From IMG/VR virus record IMGVR_UViG_3300045970_000382, positions 92,224 to 156,223 of that record: a DNA stretch of 64,000 nucleotides. The stretch is one strand, 5' to 3'. Below, piece by piece: positions 24,580-54,927 of the stretch. How positions within the stretch are numbered: position 1 is the first letter of the stretch; every line of letters starts with the position of its first letter. A model generated the notes under the pieces. The model saw only the letters and a list, made by a program, of their open reading frames with translations, did not search any database and was not told the origin of the DNA. The DNA comes from a virus. The position numbers were made by a program, and so were the translations under genes.

Positions 24580-27500
24580 TTAACTAAAATCAGTGTCAAG
24601 ATTAAACAAATCTTCTTCCCCTGTAAGATTTTGTGCTTCAATTATTGAAAAAGAATTATCTTTATTTTTACAATAAAAAGGATGTTTTCTATCTACAATT
24701 ATTGTTTTTCCATTTTCTAATGTAATAACAAACTCATTAATAGGTCCATATTCTAAGACATTAAGAATATTATCTTGTTCTAAATATCCTTGTTCATTCC
24801 AAGATAAAATTTCATCATTGATTTTAATATCTTTAGCTAATTTTTCTGTCCCATTAGACATAGTTACTAATGTATCTTTTGATACAGAACCCCATGCCAA
24901 ACCGCTGGTGGAAATTAATACTTGTAAAGATTCTTTAGTATTTTCAGCAAAATCTTCTAAAAATTGTGTTCGGGAACTCATTTCTAAATCAGCATTATAA
25001 AATAAACAATCAATTTCTTGATCTTTAAATTTAGATTCAAGCATCCGTCCAGTATTTTTATCATGTACGAAGATTAGTGTTTTCTCATTTGGATTTTTAT
25101 AATAACATTCAAGAGCTAGATTCAATTTATCTTGCTGTTGGTCAGCATATCTTAAAGATGTGTCATATTCTAATAAATTCCATTGAATAACAGTGGGTCT
25201 CCAATTATTATTTATTACTTCTGTCGGTTTACCGTTTAGTGTTGTAAGCCAAGTCTTAAATTCAGATACATTTGGCATAGTAGCAGATAGCATCAATATC
25301 TTAGCTGATGGTACTAACTTTGAAAATCGCATGATTCCTACTTCAAGTGCATGTCCTCTATTTGTAGTAAGAAGTGATGATTCGTCGGTAATTATCAGCC
25401 CAATATCAAATAACCAATCTGATTTTTCAGATTTATAATTTCGTGAACGGGAGTTATGTAACATAATTCCACCTTGTCCGCCAATCCAATTTTGTATTGG
25501 GTATGAAACATTTTTAGGTTGTATTTCAAGATCATATACAATATCTTTTCTTAAAAATTCTATACTTTTAATTTTGACAAAATGTAAATGTGGATTGAGA
25601 TTGTTTCTTTGTCTTGGGTTATTTTCATTAATTCGTATATCCCATGTTAAATATTCTTTATCTTTGTATATTCTAGTATTTTTTATTACAAAACTAAATC
25701 TTCCAACTAATAGTGTTAAATTTTGAATATCTTTAGATAGTTGAAAAGATGCTGTTCTAAAAAGATGTCTATTTTTACTTGAGTTATCAAAAAACCCATC
25801 ACCGCAAAGCATTCCATTTAAAAAGGATTCTATTTTAGATGCTTCCCAAGTAAAAACAAAATCAGGAATAGATTTTTCACGAGATAATCCACCAAACAAA
25901 TGTCCTATGTATTGCCATAAAACTGAATTCACATGCAGTGTGTGTATTATTCCACCAATAGGTCTAATATCTGTTTTTGAAGTAATATTACCACCAAAAA
26001 CTTTTTGTGCCCGTTCTAAAAATTGTAAGTTGTCATTTTTTTGCTCTATGGTTAATCTTGGGCCACGAACACAGCATCCATCAGCAACAAAAAATCCCAA
26101 TGCCCATGCTAGATCATTGTCAACTTCAATTTTTGCTGGAAATTCTAATTTAGAATGATATGCTTTTACTTTTTTCATTTCATTTATATCTAATAAACCT
26201 AATCTAAATGAATTTTCAAGTAATATTAATGGGAGATAACCTCGTTTTCTCCAATCATTTATTCTTTGTGTTGTCTTACTTAGACGTTCGTTTTCATATT
26301 TTATTGATGGGACTGCGCTAATTAAATAAAAATCATTTGAAAAAAGATTTAGTATTTTATCACTTGTGAAAAATGTTCTAGTTTTATTTACTATAGGTAA
26401 ATCTAATAACAGTTCAGCAAACGGAATTATAGATTTAGTTGCTAAAGTTTCAAATCCAGTACTTATAGCAACTTGATCTTTTTCTATATCAATATCTTTT
26501 AATATTTTAGGTATTAGTTTCTTTGTAGTTTTATCTAAGATAAATAAATTATGGCATTCTGTCATTTCAACAGATCTTCCTCCAATTAAAGATACTTTAT
26601 AAATATCTTTTGGTTCTATTTTAATTCTTCCAGTTATTTCAGTCGGTAAGATTCCTTTTCCTTCATGGTAAGAAAATACTTCACAATCAATATTATCTTC
26701 AACTATGTTACCAATACAGTCTTTCCAAACATTGCCGTTTTTATAACAATAAAGCTCAGTTTCGTATGGATACGAGTCGGTCATTTCTGATGTACAACAA
26801 ATAATATCAGCTTCGTTTAGTTCTTTAGCTTTTGTTTCTGTTAGAACAAAGTCTCCAGTTAAAATACATATTTTATAATCTTGTCCAAATGATTTAGTCC
26901 AGTCGTTAAATTTTTCAAGAGTTAATGCTTTTAATGGTGAGACATAACAAATCTTCTTTTTGTGTACTTTTAATGTTTCCCAAACAAATAATTCAGCAGA
27001 TATAGTTTTTCCTGTTGATGTAGCTGTTCCTAATACTAAGTTACAATCTTGATGCCAATAACCGTGTTTTAAAATTGTGGATTGCACACGATTGAATTGC
27101 TTAAATCCATATTTAAAATGTGGAAAATAATTATTTAAATAACAATCTTCAATCTCAACTAAATCTGTCATCATTTCTTTTGATGCCAAGTCTTTTGTTG
27201 GTTTATAAACAGGTTCAATAGAACTTTGTACCGATTTAATTGTCGAATTTAAAGATCTTAAATGATGTTCTGTTTTTGTACCACAGTTAGGAAATGCAGC
27301 ACAACCCATGAATTTTACACCTGTAGCTTTAACAGTTCTTTCAACGGTATAAGAACCACATTTTTTACAGAATATAATCTCATTAGATATTTTAATCAGA
27401 TTATTTACTCGAAGAGTTATTCTTTCAAATACAGTAGTGTTACCCTCTGTTCGTAATACTTTAGGTTCCTGACATATAATTTTATTTGCAATAGTGTCGT

Positions 27501-27729
27501 ATAAAATGTTACGAATGGCGTCTTCACCAATATCTCTGGTTTTGCCAGTACCATCAACAGTGGTATAGATATGTATTTCAAGTGAAGGTTTAGATTTTAA
27601 AGTGGCACAGATGACTAACTCTGTTCCTCTCTTTGGAAGTTTAAATTCCCATTTTAAAAAATCGTGTTGAGGAGTAAAAAAAGTATCTGCCCAGTTTTCA
27701 AATTGATCTTTTGTTAGAGCAACAAACAT
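24580..27729 (-). CDS. N-terminal half of Ski2/Hel308-like SF2 helicase, containing a cis intein and ending in a split-intein N fragment
   Basis: Zinc ribbon, Q motif FNRVQ, TSTGKT, PLKAL, DESS, SAT and STSGLAWG motifs. Confidence 0.9.
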   Translation of the reverse strand: MFVALTKDQFENWADTFFTPQHDFLKWEFKLPKRGTELVICATLKSKPSLEIHIYTTVDGTGKTRDIGEDAIRNILYDTIANKIICQEPKVLRTEGNTTVFERITLRVNNLIKISNEIIFCKKCGSYTVERTVKATGVKFMGCAAFPNCGTKTEHHLRSLNSTIKSVQSSIEPVYKPTKDLASKEMMTDLVEIEDCYLNNYFPHFKYGFKQFNRVQSTILKHGYWHQDCNLVLGTATSTGKTISAELFVWETLKVHKKKICYVSPLKALTLEKFNDWTKSFGQDYKICILTGDFVLTETKAKELNEADIICCTSEMTDSYPYETELYCYKNGNVWKDCIGNIVEDNIDCEVFSYHEGKGILPTEITGRIKIEPKDIYKVSLIGGRSVEMTECHNLFILDKTTKKLIPKILKDIDIEKDQVAISTGFETLATKSIIPFAELLLDLPIVNKTRTFFTSDKILNLFSNDFYLISAVPSIKYENERLSKTTQRINDWRKRGYLPLILLENSFRLGLLDINEMKKVKAYHSKLEFPAKIEVDNDLAWALGFFVADGCCVRGPRLTIEQKNDNLQFLERAQKVFGGNITSKTDIRPIGGIIHTLHVNSVLWQYIGHLFGGLSREKSIPDFVFTWEASKIESFLNGMLCGDGFFDNSSKNRHLFRTASFQLSKDIQNLTLLVGRFSFVIKNTRIYKDKEYLTWDIRINENNPRQRNNLNPHLHFVKIKSIEFLRKDIVYDLEIQPKNVSYPIQNWIGGQGGIMLHNSRSRNYKSEKSDWLFDIGLIITDESSLLTTNRGHALEVGIMRFSKLVPSAKILMLSATMPNVSEFKTWLTTLNGKPTEVINNNWRPTVIQWNLLEYDTSLRYADQQQDKLNLALECYYKNPNEKTLIFVHDKNTGRMLESKFKDQEIDCLFYNADLEMSSRTQFLEDFAENTKESLQVLISTSGLAWGSVSKDTLVTMSNGTEKLAKDIKINDEILSWNEQGYLEQDNILNVLEYGPINEFVITLENGKTIIVDRKHPFYCKNKDNSFSIIEAQNLTGEEDLFNLDTDFS
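24583..24888 (-). mobile_element. Split intein N fragment (102 aa, Ser1)
   Basis: LAWG|SVSKDTLV...block B VDRKHPF...AQNL then stop. Confidence 0.85.
25453..26775 (-). mobile_element. Cis intein (441 aa) with LAGLIDADG endonuclease
   Basis: EMTD|SYPYET, TECH block B, LGFFVADG, FLNGMLCGDG, VYDLEI and LHN|S. Confidence 0.9.
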
Positions 27730-33380: not shown

Positions 33381-35009
33381 TCATAATAGTGAGAAAGAAG
33401 ATATTACAGCTGGAGTATTACTATCAAAACCAACAACATCTAACATATTGCTATCTAATGGGTCTGCTATTGTAAATCCATTTGATTCCATAGCAGTAAC
33501 AATTAATTTAGCATTAGGTTTATTCATAATTGTGCGGTATTTCTTAAGTAGCGTACTAGGATGTGATCCCTGATTTACTTCATTATCAGTATAACAAACA
33601 AATACATCCACATCCAGTTTATTGTCTATAGCGTATTCAAACATCAACCCTATATTGGTAGATCCAAAACTGGTATTATTTAATACATCAGTAACTTCTT
33701 TAAGACTCATAGTCTCATTTATAGCTAAAGGTTGTATCACGTTATGAAATCCAAGAATATAACATTTAGGTTCTGCTTTAATGGTAGTCATGGCAAGAAC
33801 AGCAGAAGCAACTCTTGGAGTAAATCCTGGAATACCACCAATATTGTTCCATGACATGGATGCCGACACATCTATACATAGTAAGTATTTTTTATTTGTG
33901 GGTTTAATATTTTCAAAGGCCATATAAAATGCTTTTTCAAGAGCAGTAACAATTCTATTTTCAGGATTCCAAATTAAGTTACCTTTTAAACCTCTACCTG
34001 ATTTATAGATATGGTAAGCCATTAAAATTTGTATAGGATGTTGACGAGAACGTTTAAGTTCTTCTTCATTGGTAATTCTACCAATAATATAATCCACATT
34101 ATCAGATAAAGGTTTTATATAACCATTAGCAGTAAGAACACCTAAATTACGCATCATGGCATCATACGGACTGTTTTTGATTAAAGAAGCCCAAATTTCT
34201 GGAATCTTCAACCAATCAGTAGGAATCATCTCCCTAGTTAAACCATAGCAATCAATAGCTTCTTTCTTTTCAGAAATAGTTGTTAGATGGTCATACTGAA
34301 ACGCTAGTTCATGTCCCACTAATATTCGTAATTCTTTATTAGCGCAATTTAGTTGGAAAGGTTTTTTAACAGCCCATGCAAAAAGGGTATTAATATCTTT
34401 GTTATCAGTCTTTGGTTTACAAAGACGAAGTACGTCTCGATGTGACCAACCATTTCTTGATTGGTATTTAACCAGTTGATAGGCTAATTTTGAAACATCT
34501 AAATCCAAATACCAGTTTTTAAGAGCATCAGAAAATAGTCTACCCCGACCACGGAAGTATTTAGAGTATTCAACAAAAGCAAACAAATGAGTTCCAATTC
34601 TACAAACCTCATTTAGTTTAGATAGTGCATATTTTCTTGTTTCTTTATTATCAACACTACCAGCATAAGCAAGAGCAAATATACAAGTTTCGTTTTTAAG
34701 ACAACGTCCTTCAGTTGAAATGTTGACAATAAGATCAATAGTTTCAATAGGATGTTTGAAGAGAGCTTTGTCTAAATCACTTACATTGTCTTTTGTAAGC
34801 TTTTTTTCTTTGACATAGTAGGTTCCGCCAGTTGTACCAAGAATAAGAAACCGTTCTACTTGTTTAAGTAATGGAGTTTCAAATATAAACCCACTTGTGT
34901 TATTTTCTACCATATCTGTACGACCAGCAATAGGTCTATCTACAGGTTGGTCGCCAACTATTTTTTTATGGGGGACGTGCTGCTCAAATTTGAAGGCCAT
35001 AATTTTCAT
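33381..35009 (-). CDS. rsr: Ro60/TROVE ribonucleoprotein (Rsr ortholog)
   Basis: RFLILGT.GGTYY, RIGTHLF, KYQSRNGWSHRDVLRL, AMMRNLG, HP; vWA MIDAS DVSASM and TDNE; DVVGFDS. Confidence 0.95.
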   Translation of the reverse strand: MKIMAFKFEQHVPHKKIVGDQPVDRPIAGRTDMVENNTSGFIFETPLLKQVERFLILGTTGGTYYVKEKKLTKDNVSDLDKALFKHPIETIDLIVNISTEGRCLKNETCIFALAYAGSVDNKETRKYALSKLNEVCRIGTHLFAFVEYSKYFRGRGRLFSDALKNWYLDLDVSKLAYQLVKYQSRNGWSHRDVLRLCKPKTDNKDINTLFAWAVKKPFQLNCANKELRILVGHELAFQYDHLTTISEKKEAIDCYGLTREMIPTDWLKIPEIWASLIKNSPYDAMMRNLGVLTANGYIKPLSDNVDYIIGRITNEEELKRSRQHPIQILMAYHIYKSGRGLKGNLIWNPENRIVTALEKAFYMAFENIKPTNKKYLLCIDVSASMSWNNIGGIPGFTPRVASAVLAMTTIKAEPKCYILGFHNVIQPLAINETMSLKEVTDVLNNTSFGSTNIGLMFEYAIDNKLDVDVFVCYTDNEVNQGSHPSTLLKKYRTIMNKPNAKLIVTAMESNGFTIADPLDSNMLDVVGFDSNTPAVISSFSLL

Positions 35010-35676: not shown

Positions 35677-35801
35677 GGTTACTGGTGGGACTCGAACCTA
35701 CGACAAACTGTGTTTTGATAATCTAATATCATCAGTTCAAAAGAACAAGATTGAATATTAGTATTTTATGACGGCTGTTCTACCGCTGAACTACAGTAAC
35801 C
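35677..35801 (-). ncRNA. tRNA-His-derived Y RNA (YrlA-like, circularly permuted)
   Basis: 8-bp acceptor GGUUACUG/CAGUAACC, canonical D and T arms; CUUGUUC-UUUU-GAACUGA...AUUAUC in place of the anticodon loop. Confidence 0.8.
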
Positions 35802-35896: not shown

Positions 35897-35962
35897 AAAC
35901 AAGAAGCTTGAATCACAGGGAAAAACGGTGAGAAATAACCTGTGATTACTTTATTTCAGTTT
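35897..35962 (-). ncRNA. Y RNA-like hairpin (Y-a)
   Basis: AAACUGA...AAUCACAGG-UUAUU...CCUGUGAUU...CUUGUUU. Confidence 0.7.
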
Positions 35963-35987
35963 CAATCCGCAGCCACACAAGGCTGAC
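35959..35987 (-). CRISPR. Degenerate solitary CRISPR-repeat-like unit (not an array)
   Basis: GTCAGCCTTGTGTGGCTGCGGATTGAAAC: hairpin plus a 3' 12-mer identical to that of the repeat at 49398. Confidence 0.55.
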
Positions 35988-47140: not shown

Positions 47141-47464
47141 TTACTCATATTCAGGACAGTGAATCCAAGTTTCTATAGTTTCAGTTGTAATAGTTTTAAC
47201 TCTTTTTATTAATCTCATTTGGGATTCTTTTTTACGAAAATCTGTCTCATCCCGATTACCTTGTTTACCAATATGGCAGTCTTCACAGAGAGGTTGAAGA
47301 TTATTAATATCAAGTGATAATTCTGGATATTTTTTTCTTGGTTTAATATGTGACACAATAATTTTTGTATCACTCCCACAACATAAACATCGTTTACTAT
47401 AGAGCGATAATACTTCTGAAGCAAGTTTTTTCCAAATATGGGTTTTAAAAAATTTGTGTTTCAT
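47141..47464 (-). CDS. Small HNH endonuclease
   Basis: CLCCG, HIKP and NLQPLCEDCH motifs. Confidence 0.85.
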   Translation of the reverse strand: MKHKFFKTHIWKKLASEVLSLYSKRCLCCGSDTKIIVSHIKPRKKYPELSLDINNLQPLCEDCHIGKQGNRDETDFRKKESQMRLIKRVKTITTETIETWIHCPEYE

Positions 47465-47615
47465 AATTTTATAGATTTTAAGTTAAGTGTGGTTATTAAT
47501 TTTAAATTTAGTTTATTTGTATTAGAAATACCAGATTTTATTTAAAATAAATATGTTGTAACTAGATTTATTACGAAACTTCATAACTTCTTGATTTTCT
47601 TAGATTTTTTTCCTA

Positions 47616-47640
47616 TATTATATTATATTATATTATATTA
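47616..47640. repeat. (TATTA)5 microsatellite
   Basis: Read directly from the sequence. Confidence 0.9.
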
Positions 47641-47649
47641 TAAGATATT

Positions 47650-48470
47650 ATAAACATAAAAATATCTGAATGGCGTAATACAAGAGGCGTCCCCAGGACT
47701 CCACAGTTTCACTAACCAATTTCCGATTACACTAATAAAAATCTCAAAATTGAAATTTTTAAAATCCTGTCTAAACCTAATCTAAGAAACACAATTTCAC
47801 GAATTATCAGGAGGTTTATTACCCAGTCCCACATCTGGTAAAGTATCACAAGCCAAGCTTACACTTGAGATAGTCCTTCATTTATTTTATAAAACACCCA
47901 AAAGTTTCGTACTGAGTTGTAAATCATCCTTGGGTTTAGCTTTTAAAACTTATTAATTCTCAGTCTATGAAGGAAAAGTTTACATTTTAAAAATCTAAAT
48001 TACTTACCTTTGTTTTTGTAATACAGCTTTATTTGTTCTTGATCTTTTTACTCGGTCGTTATCGAGCCTCTCCGGATCAGGGCTAGTGGTTGCCACCCAC
48101 TCCTATTTCTATCTTCAACATTGGATATGTTAAAGATTCCTACGCCATTAACTCCCAGGTCTATCACTGACTTTCGGTTGGAATGCTTTTTAGGCTATGA
48201 AATCTTTAATAAACTAGACTTTAAATTGTCTGGGTTACATATAGAACCGCACGTAGGCCGTTAGGGCGTTTAGTTCCATAATTCCTGTAAAAGTTAAAGT
48301 TTTAAGACATAACTTATCTAGATTTACAATTCAGTTTTTTCATACTGGGTTGGTATAAGTCATCCTTCAGTAGTTCAATAAGATACTACGTGTAAGTTCC
48401 TTTTCCCCTTCGACGATGTCTACAAGGCTCTTCGTACCCAGATTCTATAGGTCACTACTTTATTCGTTTA
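47650..48470 (-). ncRNA. Candidate large ornate ncRNA
   Basis: No ORF of 60 aa or more; nested long-range helices and many hairpins; upstream minus-strand promoter. Confidence 0.5.
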
Positions 48471-48516
48471 AAAGATTATTTTTTTTCGACTTAGGATAAG
48501 TCAGGATGAGGTTTAA

Positions 48517-48630
48517 ACTATTTGAGTAACCATGCTATTAGGTTAAAACGGTAAAACTATTTGAATAATGTGGGGCAGAATTCGGTAAAAAAGTTAAATC
48601 TTAGATACATAGCATGGTTACTCAAATAGT
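48517..48630. repeat. Perfect 22-bp inverted repeat with 70-bp spacer
   Basis: ACTATTTGAGTAACCATGCTAT at 48517-48538 and its reverse complement at 48609-48630. Confidence 0.9.
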
Positions 48631-48840
48631 CTAACCTATTTGATTATCTAAAATTTAATTTAATTACCCAGCCCCTGCCCCCAAGAACTTATTTTGCCTT
48701 ACCAAGATTGATAAGACGAGTACAGCATATTACATTTTTCAACAAAAATCAAGGCCAAATTTTCAATTATTTTTAAAAGCCTTTACTGTCAAGTTTATAT
48801 CATGTATAATGCAATATAAACAAATAGTTACGAGGCAGTT

Positions 48841-49158
48841 ATGTTTAAATTTAATCCCAATGACATTAATTCATTACAAATAACAGTCACGCACTCATCT
48901 CAATCAGTAGAAGTTATTTACAATGACGGGTCAAAAAGAATTTACAATAACAAAGCAGCACCTGTTAATGAGACTAGAGACATGAGAATAAACCTTCTTG
49001 TTCTATTCAAGGATAAGGATAAAGCGAAAGCAAAAGGAGCTAAATGGGACCCAGGAAGGAAAACTTGGTATATAGAAAATGTAGAGGACTTAGAGCCATT
49101 TTTAGAGTGGGTTCCTAAGCACTTATTAAAGCCTTACCGTGCTTTAAACACTTTGTAG
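48841..49158 (+). CDS. DUF5710-like protein
   Basis: L.V.F.DKD.AK..GAKWD...K.WY motif. Confidence 0.7.
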   Translation: MFKFNPNDINSLQITVTHSSQSVEVIYNDGSKRIYNNKAAPVNETRDMRINLLVLFKDKDKAKAKGAKWDPGRKTWYIENVEDLEPFLEWVPKHLLKPYRALNTL

Positions 49159-49397
49159 GGAATTATTTATGAGTTTTATAGGTGTATTAGTACTATCTGC
49201 ATTAGCCATTTTTGTGGTAGGCTACTTGTTCATCTATAGTAGCCCATTCATTAGATTTTTAAATCAAGATGAAAATGACAGGAATTAGATATGGATTTTT
49301 TGGATGTAGTAGTAAGTATACTAACGATTCTAAGTATTGCTGGGCTTCTTGCTGTGGTTTGGTGGTTAGGTCGTTAATTTAGTTGTCCTTTTTAAGG

Positions 49398-49434
49398 GTA
49401 TCTCCCGGCCTAACCGCCGGGAGCGGATTGAAAC
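49398..49434 (+). CRISPR. Solitary 37-bp CRISPR repeat unit (RNA anti-CRISPR candidate)
   Basis: GTATCTCCCGGCCTAACCGCCGGGAGCGGATTGAAAC: GT start, 8-bp hairpin, ATTGAAAC end; no neighbouring repeat. Confidence 0.8.
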
Positions 49435-49463
49435 ATTTTTATTATTTTTTTAGGATGTCAATT

Positions 49464-49733
49464 ATGAGTAAAATATACAAAGAGTCACCTTTCGGTTCTA
49501 TTTTCAATTCATTTGAGGTATCAGATGAAGGGGAACATAATCTAGAATTGTTTTTTAACGAGGGTGGGGAGTTGGAGTTATGCAGAAAGGCTGAAAAGGC
49601 AGAGGATGGGTCTGTTTATCAGAGTGTAGATCTTCATTTAGAGTTCGAGGAGGTTGTGCGATTGAAAAACTTTTTAATTTTCGCTCTTAAACCCTTCCGG
49701 GAAAACGAAGAAGATCTCTATTCAGAGGATTAG
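49464..49733 (+). CDS. Small acidic hypothetical protein directly after the solitary repeat
   Basis: AGGA RBS then ATG 49464; very Glu/Asp-rich. Confidence 0.6.
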   Translation: MSKIYKESPFGSIFNSFEVSDEGEHNLELFFNEGGELELCRKAEKAEDGSVYQSVDLHLEFEEVVRLKNFLIFALKPFRENEEDLYSED

Positions 49734-50262
49734 AGATGGCTTTTCATGTCCCCGAAGAATTTTATTGCCTCCGAGAGATTTTGTATGAAGAATGCGAGTA
49801 AAAATTGTGAGATAGATATATTAAAAAAAATCTTTCCTAATTGTAAACCACAAGGTAGCTCAAAAACAATAACTTGGACTCTGATAGAGGGTACAAGATT
49901 GGATGTTTGCTGCACTATTAAAAATGCGGGTTGGATCGAAACAAATGAATTACGGCACAGTGAGGCTGCATTTGTCCATAAAAAGTACCCTAATTTAAGA
50001 ATAGCTCTTGACTATTCTAGTCTGAAACCTGGATGGATGAATGTAATGGTAGTGACTCCTACGGAATCTAAAGTATGACAGGTTACGAGTTACAGTCTGT
50101 TTTAAAAGCCTATGTCACCTTACTTGAAGGAGAAAATCCGTTTGAACTAAATCTCTTTAAGCCGAGCATCACTGTGAAGGAAGCAACAGAGATGATGGAG
50201 TTACTACCTAAAGTACGGGAATATTTAGCAAAAAATAAAGTTAGGAAGCCTATGACTTCATC

Positions 50263-50398
50263 TTGACATTGTATAAAATAGCGTATATAATTAAGATGTT
50301 ATTGGCGTACTATGAGTAAGATATTAAGCCAATAACATCTGTGTTATTACTGAAACCCAGCTCTAGTGTACTTACTCTACATTATCTGGGTTTCTTTT
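50263..50398 (+). promoter_or_regulatory. Consensus promoter plus two-hairpin leader with complementary loops (GAGUAAG/CUUACUC)
   Basis: TTGACA-N17-TATAAT; 13-bp stem; GAAACCCAG/CTGGGTTTC followed by T-tract. Confidence 0.75.
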
Positions 50399-50414: not shown

Positions 50415-51155
50415 ATGAAAACTATATCAAGAGGAGATGTTTTTGAAACGAACATATCTGGTTTTTGTACTGTTGTAGAGTATATAGATTCACGAAATGT
50501 GAAAGTTAGATTTGAAGATGGATTTGAAACAATTTGTCAATCTGGTCAATTAAGAAATGGTCAGGTTAAGAATCCAAATAATCCAATTATTTATGGTGTT
50601 GGTTTTATAGGAGTTGGAAATTATTCTCATAAATCACATCCAAGAATTTATTACTGTTGGAGGGACATGATAGGAAGATGTTATCACAAAGTTACTCAAT
50701 TAAAACATCGATCTTATATTGGTTGTACTGTATGTGAAAGATGGTGGAATTTTCAAAATTTTTGTTATGATTACTTGATAATGGTAGGTTCAGATTTAAA
50801 TTATCATTTAGATAAAGATTTATTATTTAAAGGAAATAAGATATATTCACCAGAAACATGTTGCTTAGTTCCACGTCAAGTAAATAACGTTTTAGAAAAA
50901 TGTGATGCTAATAGAGGTGAATGTTGTATTGGAGTTAATTACTATGAAGATAAAATAAATCCATACAAAGCTACTTGTAACGTTGAAGGAAAACAAAAAT
51001 ATCTTGGTATTTACAAAACAGAACAAGAAGCACGACAAGTCTATAAAGTAGCTAAAGAAGCTGAATTTAAAAGACTGGCTAATTTATACAAAGATACATT
51101 AGATTCAAGAGCTTATATAGCTTTAATGAATCGCACGGTTGATGAAGATGATTAG
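50415..51155 (+). CDS. HNH-like/AP2 homing endonuclease, family copy 9
   Basis: Same motifs as copy 1. Confidence 0.8.
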   Translation: MKTISRGDVFETNISGFCTVVEYIDSRNVKVRFEDGFETICQSGQLRNGQVKNPNNPIIYGVGFIGVGNYSHKSHPRIYYCWRDMIGRCYHKVTQLKHRSYIGCTVCERWWNFQNFCYDYLIMVGSDLNYHLDKDLLFKGNKIYSPETCCLVPRQVNNVLEKCDANRGECCIGVNYYEDKINPYKATCNVEGKQKYLGIYKTEQEARQVYKVAKEAEFKRLANLYKDTLDSRAYIALMNRTVDEDD

Positions 51156-52845: not shown

Positions 52846-53115
52846 TTGAAGACAGATAAATTTGCCAGAGGAGTATACGTTTTTGAATCTGTTTTAGAAG
52901 GTAAATCTTATCAAGATATAGGTAATGAAATAGGACTGTCACTTAGCACTGTTAAGCAAATTTTAGTTGAAATAGAACAGGAAGTTTTAAAATTGATCCC
53001 TTATAGGGACAGACCTCATGACAATTATGGAAAAACTTCTCCAGATAGATTAAGAGAATTTCGCCCACTTTGGATTAATTATTTAGAAATATTTAAAAAT
53101 AAGAATAATATTTAA
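52846..53115 (+). CDS. Small HTH protein
   Basis: GKSYQDIGNEIGLSLSTVKQI. Confidence 0.6.
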   Translation: MKTDKFARGVYVFESVLEGKSYQDIGNEIGLSLSTVKQILVEIEQEVLKLIPYRDRPHDNYGKTSPDRLREFRPLWINYLEIFKNKNNI

Positions 53116-54898: not shown

Positions 54899-54927
54899 TT
54901 GACTTGAAGTTTTAGTTTATGTATAAT
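54899..54927 (+). promoter_or_regulatory. sigma70-type promoter with extended -10
   Basis: TTGACT-N17-TATAAT, AGTTTATGTATAAT. Confidence 0.7.

Follow-up and report, generated by a model that had tools for sequence, protein, structure and literature searches.

A solitary type I-C CRISPR repeat unit in a large A+T-rich phage genome is a candidate RNA anti-CRISPR against a predicted methanotroph host

The DNA analysed here, referred to as the window, comprises 64,000 nucleotides (nt) of a viral genome (IMG/VR record IMGVR_UViG_3300045970_000382, positions 92,224 to 156,223) and carries a single intact 37-nt unit that is identical to the repeats of type I-C CRISPR arrays found in methanotrophic bacteria. 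The reading that we favour, at about even confidence and on the strength of sequence comparison, is that this unit acts as an RNA anti-CRISPR (Racr) against the type I-C system of a methanotroph host. Racrs as a kind have been known since 2023, and the novelty of this case is the host clade and the phage, not the principle.

The unit and its parts are located as follows.

49398–49434, + strand: solitary 37-nt type I-C CRISPR repeat unit, candidate Racr (identity to arrays, Rfam match, fold)
49402–49409, + strand: 5' stem arm, CTCCCGGC
49410–49415, + strand: loop of 6 nt, CTAACC
49416–49423, + strand: 3' stem arm, GCCGGGAG
49424–49434, + strand: 11-nt tail (handle), CGGATTGAAAC

The unit thus has a GC stem of 8 bp, which is closed by a 6-nt loop, and a tail of 11 nt that ends in ATTGAAAC, and the 8-bp hairpin was recovered by RNA folding. 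The Rfam family CRISPR-DR9 aligned over all of its positions (1–37 of 37) at 49398–49434 on the + strand, with a score of 39.4 bits against a gathering score of 45 and an E value of 1.6e-5 window-wide. Neither the window nor the whole 156,223-bp record contains a further copy of the unit, and none of 100 shuffled windows gave a match to it at ≤ 3 mismatches. Its G+C content is about 62%, as compared with about 31% for the genome. A frame starting with TTG (49383–49733) is open through the repeat and lacks a ribosome-binding site; the public gene call starts at 49455.

A scan of the whole genome for degenerate copies (≥ 20/37 matches) found no second repeat above the level of shuffled sequence, and neither a second repeat at spacer distance nor spacer remnants were detected beside the unit. 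Searches by tblastn with the Cas5c, Cas8c, Cas7c, Cas3, Cas4 and Cas1 proteins of the candidate host detected no cas genes in the phage. The unit is therefore a single repeat on a mobile element that has neither an array nor cas genes. The similarity between phage and arrays ends exactly at the borders of the 37 nt. Longer alignments (54–58 nt) of the unit and its flanks to arrays were rejected as chance, the 11/16 flank matches being equal to those of random controls. The first-pass annotation, made from the letters of the sequence, had described one intact GC-rich 37-bp repeat with a stem, placed in an intergenic gap and co-oriented with transcription, without a second repeat at spacer distance and without a cas gene in the window, and followed by a T-rich stretch and an 89-amino-acid (aa) acidic open reading frame (ORF), and each of these descriptions was borne out. 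Its description of the repeat as a solitary element stands for the full 37-nt copy and has to be qualified, because a shortened mimic is also present in the genome.

Apart from the 37-nt unit, this shortened mimic is the only element of the 156-kb genome that combines a hairpin with the handle.

35959–35985, − strand: 5-bp hairpin CAGCC/GGCTG followed by the identical 11-nt handle CGGATTGAAAC

It lies about 24 nt after a promoter, TTGTTT-17-TATAAT (36044–36016, − strand), and ahead of a Y-RNA/Ro60 block.

In order to find the source of the repeat and the likely host, the 3' 19-mer of the unit was searched against one genome per prokaryote species. The scan returned 82 loci, many of which were arrays with a period of about 72 nt. 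Identity over 37/37 positions was found in M. lacus (one array with 50 repeats), in Methylomicrobium sp. Wu6 (two arrays) and in a Methylobacter metagenome-assembled genome (MAG), and variants with one mismatch were found in other Methylococcales and in unclassified gammaproteobacterial MAGs. Arrays of the exact 37-mer were also present in nine metagenome contigs with a G+C content of about 50%. A match to bona fide array repeats, on which the first-pass annotation had made its reading depend, was therefore found.

The M. lacus array adjoins the genes cas2-cas1-cas4-(88-aa ORF)-cas3-cas7-cas8-cas5 and a divergent WYL regulator. PADLOC, NCBIfam and Pfam assigned the encoded proteins to type I-C (Cas8c, 497 bits; Cas3c, 342 bits; Cas5c; Cas7c), and Cas1c scored 497 bits against a cut-off of 385. 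The same three resources did not find Cas6 in the M. lacus cas locus. The locus accordingly holds the complement that defines type I-C, namely Cas5c, Cas8c, Cas7c, Cas3, Cas4, Cas1c and Cas2 without Cas6 and with a repeat ending in ATTGAAAC, so that the mimicked system belongs to class 1, as had been proposed. In the textbook I-C operon cas3 comes first, an order from which the M. lacus arrangement, cas5-cas8-cas7-cas3-cas4-cas1-cas2, departs. Since Cas6 is missing from this operon, Cas5c should cut the repeat RNA at the stem base and leave an 11-nt handle. Processing by Cas5d gives I-C handles of 11 nt, which is exactly the length of the tail in the phage unit. The same handle length is stated in the legend of Extended Data Fig. 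9 of an earlier study (PMC10651486).

In two pond metagenome runs the phage is present, with a depth of about 16, together with repeat-spacer-repeat contigs of the same repeat. These runs may be the samples from which the record was derived, and the co-occurrence of phage and arrays is therefore not independent proof. The repeat, the co-occurrence in the same samples and a weak kinship of the phage DNA polymerase with those of phages of Gammaproteobacteria together predict methanotrophs of the Methylomicrobium/Methylobacter group as hosts. In line with the expectation that the repeat could identify the host, its 37/37 identity points to this group. A search for pmoC, a marker of methanotroph phages, gave no match in the phage, and the control search was likewise without a match.

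The unit lies in a run of co-oriented genes, the main features of which are listed below.

48782–48810, + strand: sigma-70-like promoter TTTACT-17-TATAAT (consensus match at 10/12 positions), at the right edge of the ORF-poor divergent region
48841–49158, + strand: opening ORF of the operon (105 aa), which carries a DUF5710 domain at its C-terminus (Pfam PF18974, 54.7 bits)
49169–49288, + strand: putative 39-aa hydrophobic mini-ORF
49291–49377, + strand: putative 28-aa hydrophobic mini-ORF, ending 20 nt before the repeat
49435–49463, + strand: T-rich leader after the repeat, with the T-rich tract at 49435–49451 and an AGGA ribosome-binding site at 49452–49455
49464–49733, + strand: orphan acidic ORF, 89 aa, candidate anti-CRISPR (Acr), pI 4.4, with 22 acidic and 9 basic residues
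49785–50078, + strand: basic ORF, 97 aa (110 aa if it starts at 49746), no family
50075–50266, + strand: 63-aa ORF, the last gene before the next promoter, no family
50263–50291, + strand: perfect sigma-70 consensus promoter TTGACA-17-TATAAT, which starts the next unit

The promoter at 48782–48810 probably drives the operon that contains the repeat, and the perfect consensus promoter at 50263–50291 marks the region as one that is read by the host RNA polymerase, which is compatible with early genes; similar sites with 11–12 of 12 matches lie at 54899 and 57169. The orientation of the unit with its operon, amid strong sigma-70 promoters and small orphan ORFs, supports the Racr reading. Likewise, the high similarity in sequence and structure to the repeats of a host system by which Racrs are recognized was found for the unit (37/37 identity, hairpin, CRISPR-DR9).

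The 89-aa ORF, which starts 29 nt downstream of the unit, is probably a real gene, because its differences from a relative in a third sample (run X3) fall mostly at third codon positions (4/5); in the 105-aa DUF5710 ORF, all four differences from the X3 relative are at third positions. No homologue of the 89-aa protein other than itself was found among 5.8 billion proteins, it matched no PHROG or Pfam family, and the protein atlas contained nothing above 0.85. Its single-sequence AF2 model was poor, with a pLDDT (predicted local distance difference test) of 58.7. A match in the PDB sequences to the Rad50-binding segment of Mre11 (E 0.0014) was marginal and was treated as compositional. The 97/110-aa ORF has only three weak relatives, including a 5336-aa protein with 12 matched stretches.

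If the unit is a Racr, the host RNA polymerase would transcribe the operon from about 48.8 kb early in infection, and the phage repeat RNA would fold into the hairpin of the host repeat. The host Cas5c would then bind the repeat and cut it between 49423 and 49424, where the stem has its 3' base, after which Cas5c, and probably Cas7c too, would assemble on an RNA that has an authentic 11-nt handle and no useful guide. Subunits of Cascade would thereby be drawn away, in a dose-dependent manner, from the CRISPR RNAs (crRNAs) that target the phage, and the shortened mimic at 35959–35985 (− strand) could serve as a second source of decoy. In the crRNA-like product the leader at 49435–49463, which spans the start region of the next ORF, would take the place of the spacer. 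Such a product would be unable to target the phage itself, because the DNA beside this 'spacer' is the end of the repeat (AAC), which is not a protospacer-adjacent motif (PAM).

The closest precedent is RacrIC1, a validated I-C Racr of a Bifidobacterium pseudocatenulatum prophage, which shares a single transcript with acrIC5 (Camara-Wilpert et al. 2023, PMC10651486). The phage unit resembles RacrIC1 in being a solitary I-C repeat without cas genes, in sharing an operon with a small protein gene and in having Cas5 as its cognate nuclease. RacrIC1 follows a known acrIC5 homologue at a distance of 11 nt, whereas the phage unit lies upstream of an orphan ORF that has no similarity to Acrs. The present case further differs in the Methylococcales host clade, in the 156-kb, apparently lytic-style phage of 31% G+C and in the additional truncated mimic, and it is a candidate only. 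In a similar way, RacrIF1, like viral solitary repeat units in general, is a repeat mimic that would sequester the processing nuclease and Cas7 in aberrant subcomplexes and compete with crRNAs in a dose-dependent manner, as the phage unit would do; RacrIF1, however, has its own promoter and acts via Cas6f, while the phage unit has none within 250 bp and would act via Cas5c. Inhibition by Racrs has been reported to be dose dependent (PMC10651486). Solitary repeat units in viruses had been described before that work by Faure et al. 2019, as cited there.

Several observations weigh against this reading. No promoter was found within 250 bp upstream of the repeat, the nearest good site being about 590 nt upstream; a promoter at ≤ 250 bp is a selection rule of the published Racr pipeline (PMC10651486), although the operon-embedded RacrIC1 sets a precedent for the present layout. 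None of the sequencing runs listed for the stretch was an RNA run. Family, sequence and atlas searches with the ORFs neighbouring the repeat gave no match to Acr, anti-CRISPR-associated (Aca) or helix-turn-helix (HTH) proteins, and the nearest ORF with an HTH domain (Sigma70_r4) is at 52846–53115, 3.1 kb from the repeat; acr or aca neighbours are frequent around Racrs and count as supportive evidence, but they are no requirement. Furthermore, none of 792 spacers (521 taken from arrays in genomes, 265 from arrays in metagenomes and 6 from contigs of the same samples) matched the phage, the best match of 21/35 being at chance level, and there is thus no sign that this I-C system targets the phage. 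The G+C content of the candidate hosts is about 50% and that of the phage 31%, and no cultured phage has a DNA polymerase that shares more than about 30% identity with the phage enzyme. Finally, the same unit occurs on the mRNA leaders of housekeeping genes (dnaJ, tsf, cysD and mnmA) in members of the host family and of the Isosphaeraceae, which indicates that a single copy is tolerated and that a role in gene expression is possible. The earlier proposal of a Racr against a class 1 system was strengthened by the identity to I-C arrays and by the precedent of RacrIC1, and weakened by the distance to the nearest promoter and by the emergence of a rival explanation as a leader element; its suggestion that the downstream ORFs are Acr candidates gained no support from the searches made with them.

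According to this rival, which we regard as rather unlikely although it is the most serious of the alternatives, the unit is a Cas5c-operated leader or intercistronic processing site at which the operon RNA is cut just upstream of the next cistron. The mRNA of the acidic ORF would receive a defined 5'-OH end with the 11-nt handle, and the upstream RNA would receive a protective 3' hairpin. Host Cas5c would then be required for, or would tune, the expression of the downstream gene, which might encode an Acr, and any decoy effect would be a by-product. The position of the unit, 29 nt before the start of the ORF and with a 'spacer' region that spans the ribosome-binding site and the AUG, agrees with such a site, as does the predicted fold, in which the handle pairs weakly with the region of the ribosome-binding site. 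The shortened mimic likewise heads an RNA operon.

Additional support for a processing site comes from bacterial genomes, where many single 37-nt copies are discrete units 0–35 nt upstream of long ORFs and not the ends of arrays.

Methylococcaceae UBA2778 MAG (L105, L117, L103, L113): dnaK-unit-4 nt-dnaJ; rpsB-unit-35 nt-tsf; unit-9 nt-cysD; unit-12 nt-gspE-like gene
Isosphaeraceae MAG (L123, L122, L102 and others): unit-8 nt-mnmA; one unit before a MEMO1-family gene

The genes behind these units were identified with NCBIfam. The flanks of the bacterial copies are unrelated, which indicates that the unit is discrete, and a compensatory stem variant in one lineage (CCCCCGGC/GCCGGGGG) indicates that the hairpin is maintained. 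These copies look like a CRISPR repeat that has been co-opted as an mRNA leader or intercistronic element, and no description of CRISPR repeats as leader units of housekeeping mRNAs was found in the literature searched. Engineered Csy4/Cas6 sites are used as cistron insulators in synthetic operons. Like the phage unit, they have a repeat hairpin that separates two cistrons and closely precedes a ribosome-binding site, but they are artificial, and a natural counterpart is only suggested by the bacterial units and the phage unit.

On the other hand, it would be risky for a phage gene to depend on a host nuclease that is dispensable and varies among strains, and the bacterial units are themselves putative processing sites. 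A search of the Methylococcaceae MAG, which is incomplete, with the M. lacus Cas5c as the query gave no match. Moreover, the region of the ribosome-binding site has only a weak, A/U-rich fold, and exact identity to an array repeat would be expected equally of a decoy. The fuller form of the idea, to which we assign a slightly lower probability still, is that the I-C repeat was co-opted in the methanotroph lineage as a module before start codons and that the phage copy is less a decoy than a natural Cas5c switch in an mRNA leader, through which host Cas5c would trigger the processing or translation of the acidic ORF (possibly an Acr) and so couple it to the detection of defence.

It is also conceivable, though improbable in our judgement, that the unit is an inert relic, a piece of a host array that recombined into the phage and collapsed to one repeat without a selected function. 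CRISPR repeats are prone to recombination, and copies at ectopic sites are gained and lost (PMC10120712). A close relative of the phage, with which conservation could be compared, was not found by blastn against cultured phages or by scans of IMG/VR with the 89-aa protein and a neighbouring 87-aa protein; the DUF5710 protein gave two distant loci in the IMG/VR scan. Related phage fragments with about 90–95% identity were present in the third sample (run X3, freshwater sediment). An A+T-rich X3 contig, which aligned at 49399–49438, carries the repeat between A+T-rich flanks that are unlike the flanks in this phage; it could be the corresponding locus of the related phage, and it may weigh against a relic. 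A relic is also difficult to reconcile with a unit that is fully intact, has exact 37-nt borders and is without spacer fragments, and that occupies an intergenic slot in the sense orientation within a strongly A+T-biased genome. Furthermore, the second, independent mimic keeps the same 11-nt handle. The presence of an intact unit of 62% G+C in a genome of 31% G+C, together with this second, promoter-adjacent mimic (handle 11/11), therefore favours selection over a relic.

Solitary units of the same repeat family were also observed in three unrelated IMG/VR contigs (L002, L003 and L004; 47–68% G+C), a further point in favour of the Racr reading. The unit in L003 is bracketed by terminator-like hairpins, and in L002 the complement of the handle stands in place of the 5' half of the unit, so that one long hairpin results.

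A use of the unit together with a guide was considered in two forms, as a Cracr/CreR mimic that would steer Cascade to a cas promoter or to the CreT toxin, or as a one-repeat weapon against sibling phages free of the insert, and it is judged to be considerably less probable than a relic. Viral crRNA-like regulators exist, including I-C ones, and by the published criterion the guide of a Cracr pairs with the promoter of a cas or toxin gene over at least 9 PAM-proximal nt (Liu et al., bioRxiv 10.1101/2024.10.29.618823). Cracr, CreR and CreA RNAs are, like the phage unit, built from CRISPR repeats (Liu et al.; Shmakov et al., PMC10120712). They need a guide of at least 9 nt and usually a second degenerate repeat, neither of which was found in the phage. 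No PAM-proximal match of at least 9 nt to the M. lacus or Methylobacter cas loci was detected, the best run of 8 being at chance level, whereas the M. lacus unit upstream of cas5 gave runs of 10 in the same comparison. The sequence downstream of the phage unit shares its first 5 nt (ATTTT) with the guide of this M. lacus unit and diverges from it at positions 7–10. The Cracr/CreR reading was rejected, as neither the guide nor the layout of repeat, guide and (degenerate) repeat is present.

The M. lacus unit itself (L087:8668–8809, − strand) is repeat-like and lies about 100 nt upstream of cas5; it has a different stem and the same 3' 16 nt, and behind it come a guide of about 20 nt and a terminator hairpin. 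Over its first 11 nt this guide matches the region of the cas5 ribosome-binding site and a site in cas3 at 10/10 counted positions (every sixth position being ignored). It is a candidate CreR-like self-regulator of the type I-C operon.

As for the weapon against siblings, the 3 nt upstream of the unit are AGG and not the I-C PAM TTC (TTC being assumed from the I-C literature), so that an allele free of the insert would be no target. Virus-borne mini-CRISPR arrays are known from conflicts between viruses (Medvedeva et al. 2019, as named in PMC10651486), and they too consist of host-type repeats on a virus without cas genes. Such mini-arrays have at least two repeats and a spacer against a rival virus, while the phage has a single repeat without an identifiable target, and its junction lacks a PAM. 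The reading as a mini-array or homing guide was therefore also rejected, the junction being AGG and not TTC and no sibling allele having been found in the IMG/VR scans.

An ordinary intrinsic terminator or RNA-stability hairpin that resembles a CRISPR repeat by chance would account for a GC-rich hairpin with a T-rich tract downstream, but it has a negligible probability and is excluded as the sole explanation by geometry and array identity: the T run begins 12 nt after the stem (0–2 nt being the criterion), the terminator scan made no call, and a 37/37 identity that includes the loop and the tail is not a coincidence (0/100 shuffles; Rfam E 1.6e-5).

Little is known about the phages that infect aerobic methanotrophs, and these phages have an influence on the methane consumers of ponds and sediments. 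Links between phage and host that do not require culture are rare, and the exact repeat copy provides one here, from a 156-kb phage to Methylomicrobium/Methylobacter with a type I-C system. With the Racr reading, the range of RNA anti-CRISPRs would come to include a new host clade and a large, strongly A+T-biased phage that apparently has two mimics, and one 37-nt unit with one orphan acidic gene makes a compact test case. The occurrence of the repeat before housekeeping genes of the host family may matter more; if that interpretation is true, CRISPR repeats and Cas5c act in ordinary mRNA handling, and a Cas5c switch, if real, would couple counter-defence to the detection of host defence.

The 156,223-bp record, of which the window is the last 64 kb, was rated 100% complete by CheckV. 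Its ends (1–195 and 156029–156223) repeat each other at 194/195 bases, and it is labelled linear in IMG/VR; it probably represents a complete genome whose ends overlap. The strand of the genes switches at the 1.3-kb ORF-poor region at 47.5–48.8 kb. In this stretch (47560–48840), which is without credible ORFs and without an Rfam match, there are several inverted repeats and an (ATATT)n-like run; it may serve as an origin or control region.

Near the shortened mimic, the phage encodes a Ro60 homologue (33381–35009, − strand) with TROVE and Ro60 vWA domains. A 124-nt stretch upstream of the Ro60 gene (35677–35800, − strand), which matched the Rfam tRNA family at 39.7 bits and was not called by ARAGORN, is probably a tRNA-like Y RNA. 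Elsewhere in the window, a 1049-aa DEAD-box helicase ORF (24580–27729, − strand) is interrupted by an intein with a LAGLIDADG-like domain, and the early region is flanked by genes for HNH endonucleases at 50415–51155 (+ strand) and 47141–47464 (− strand).

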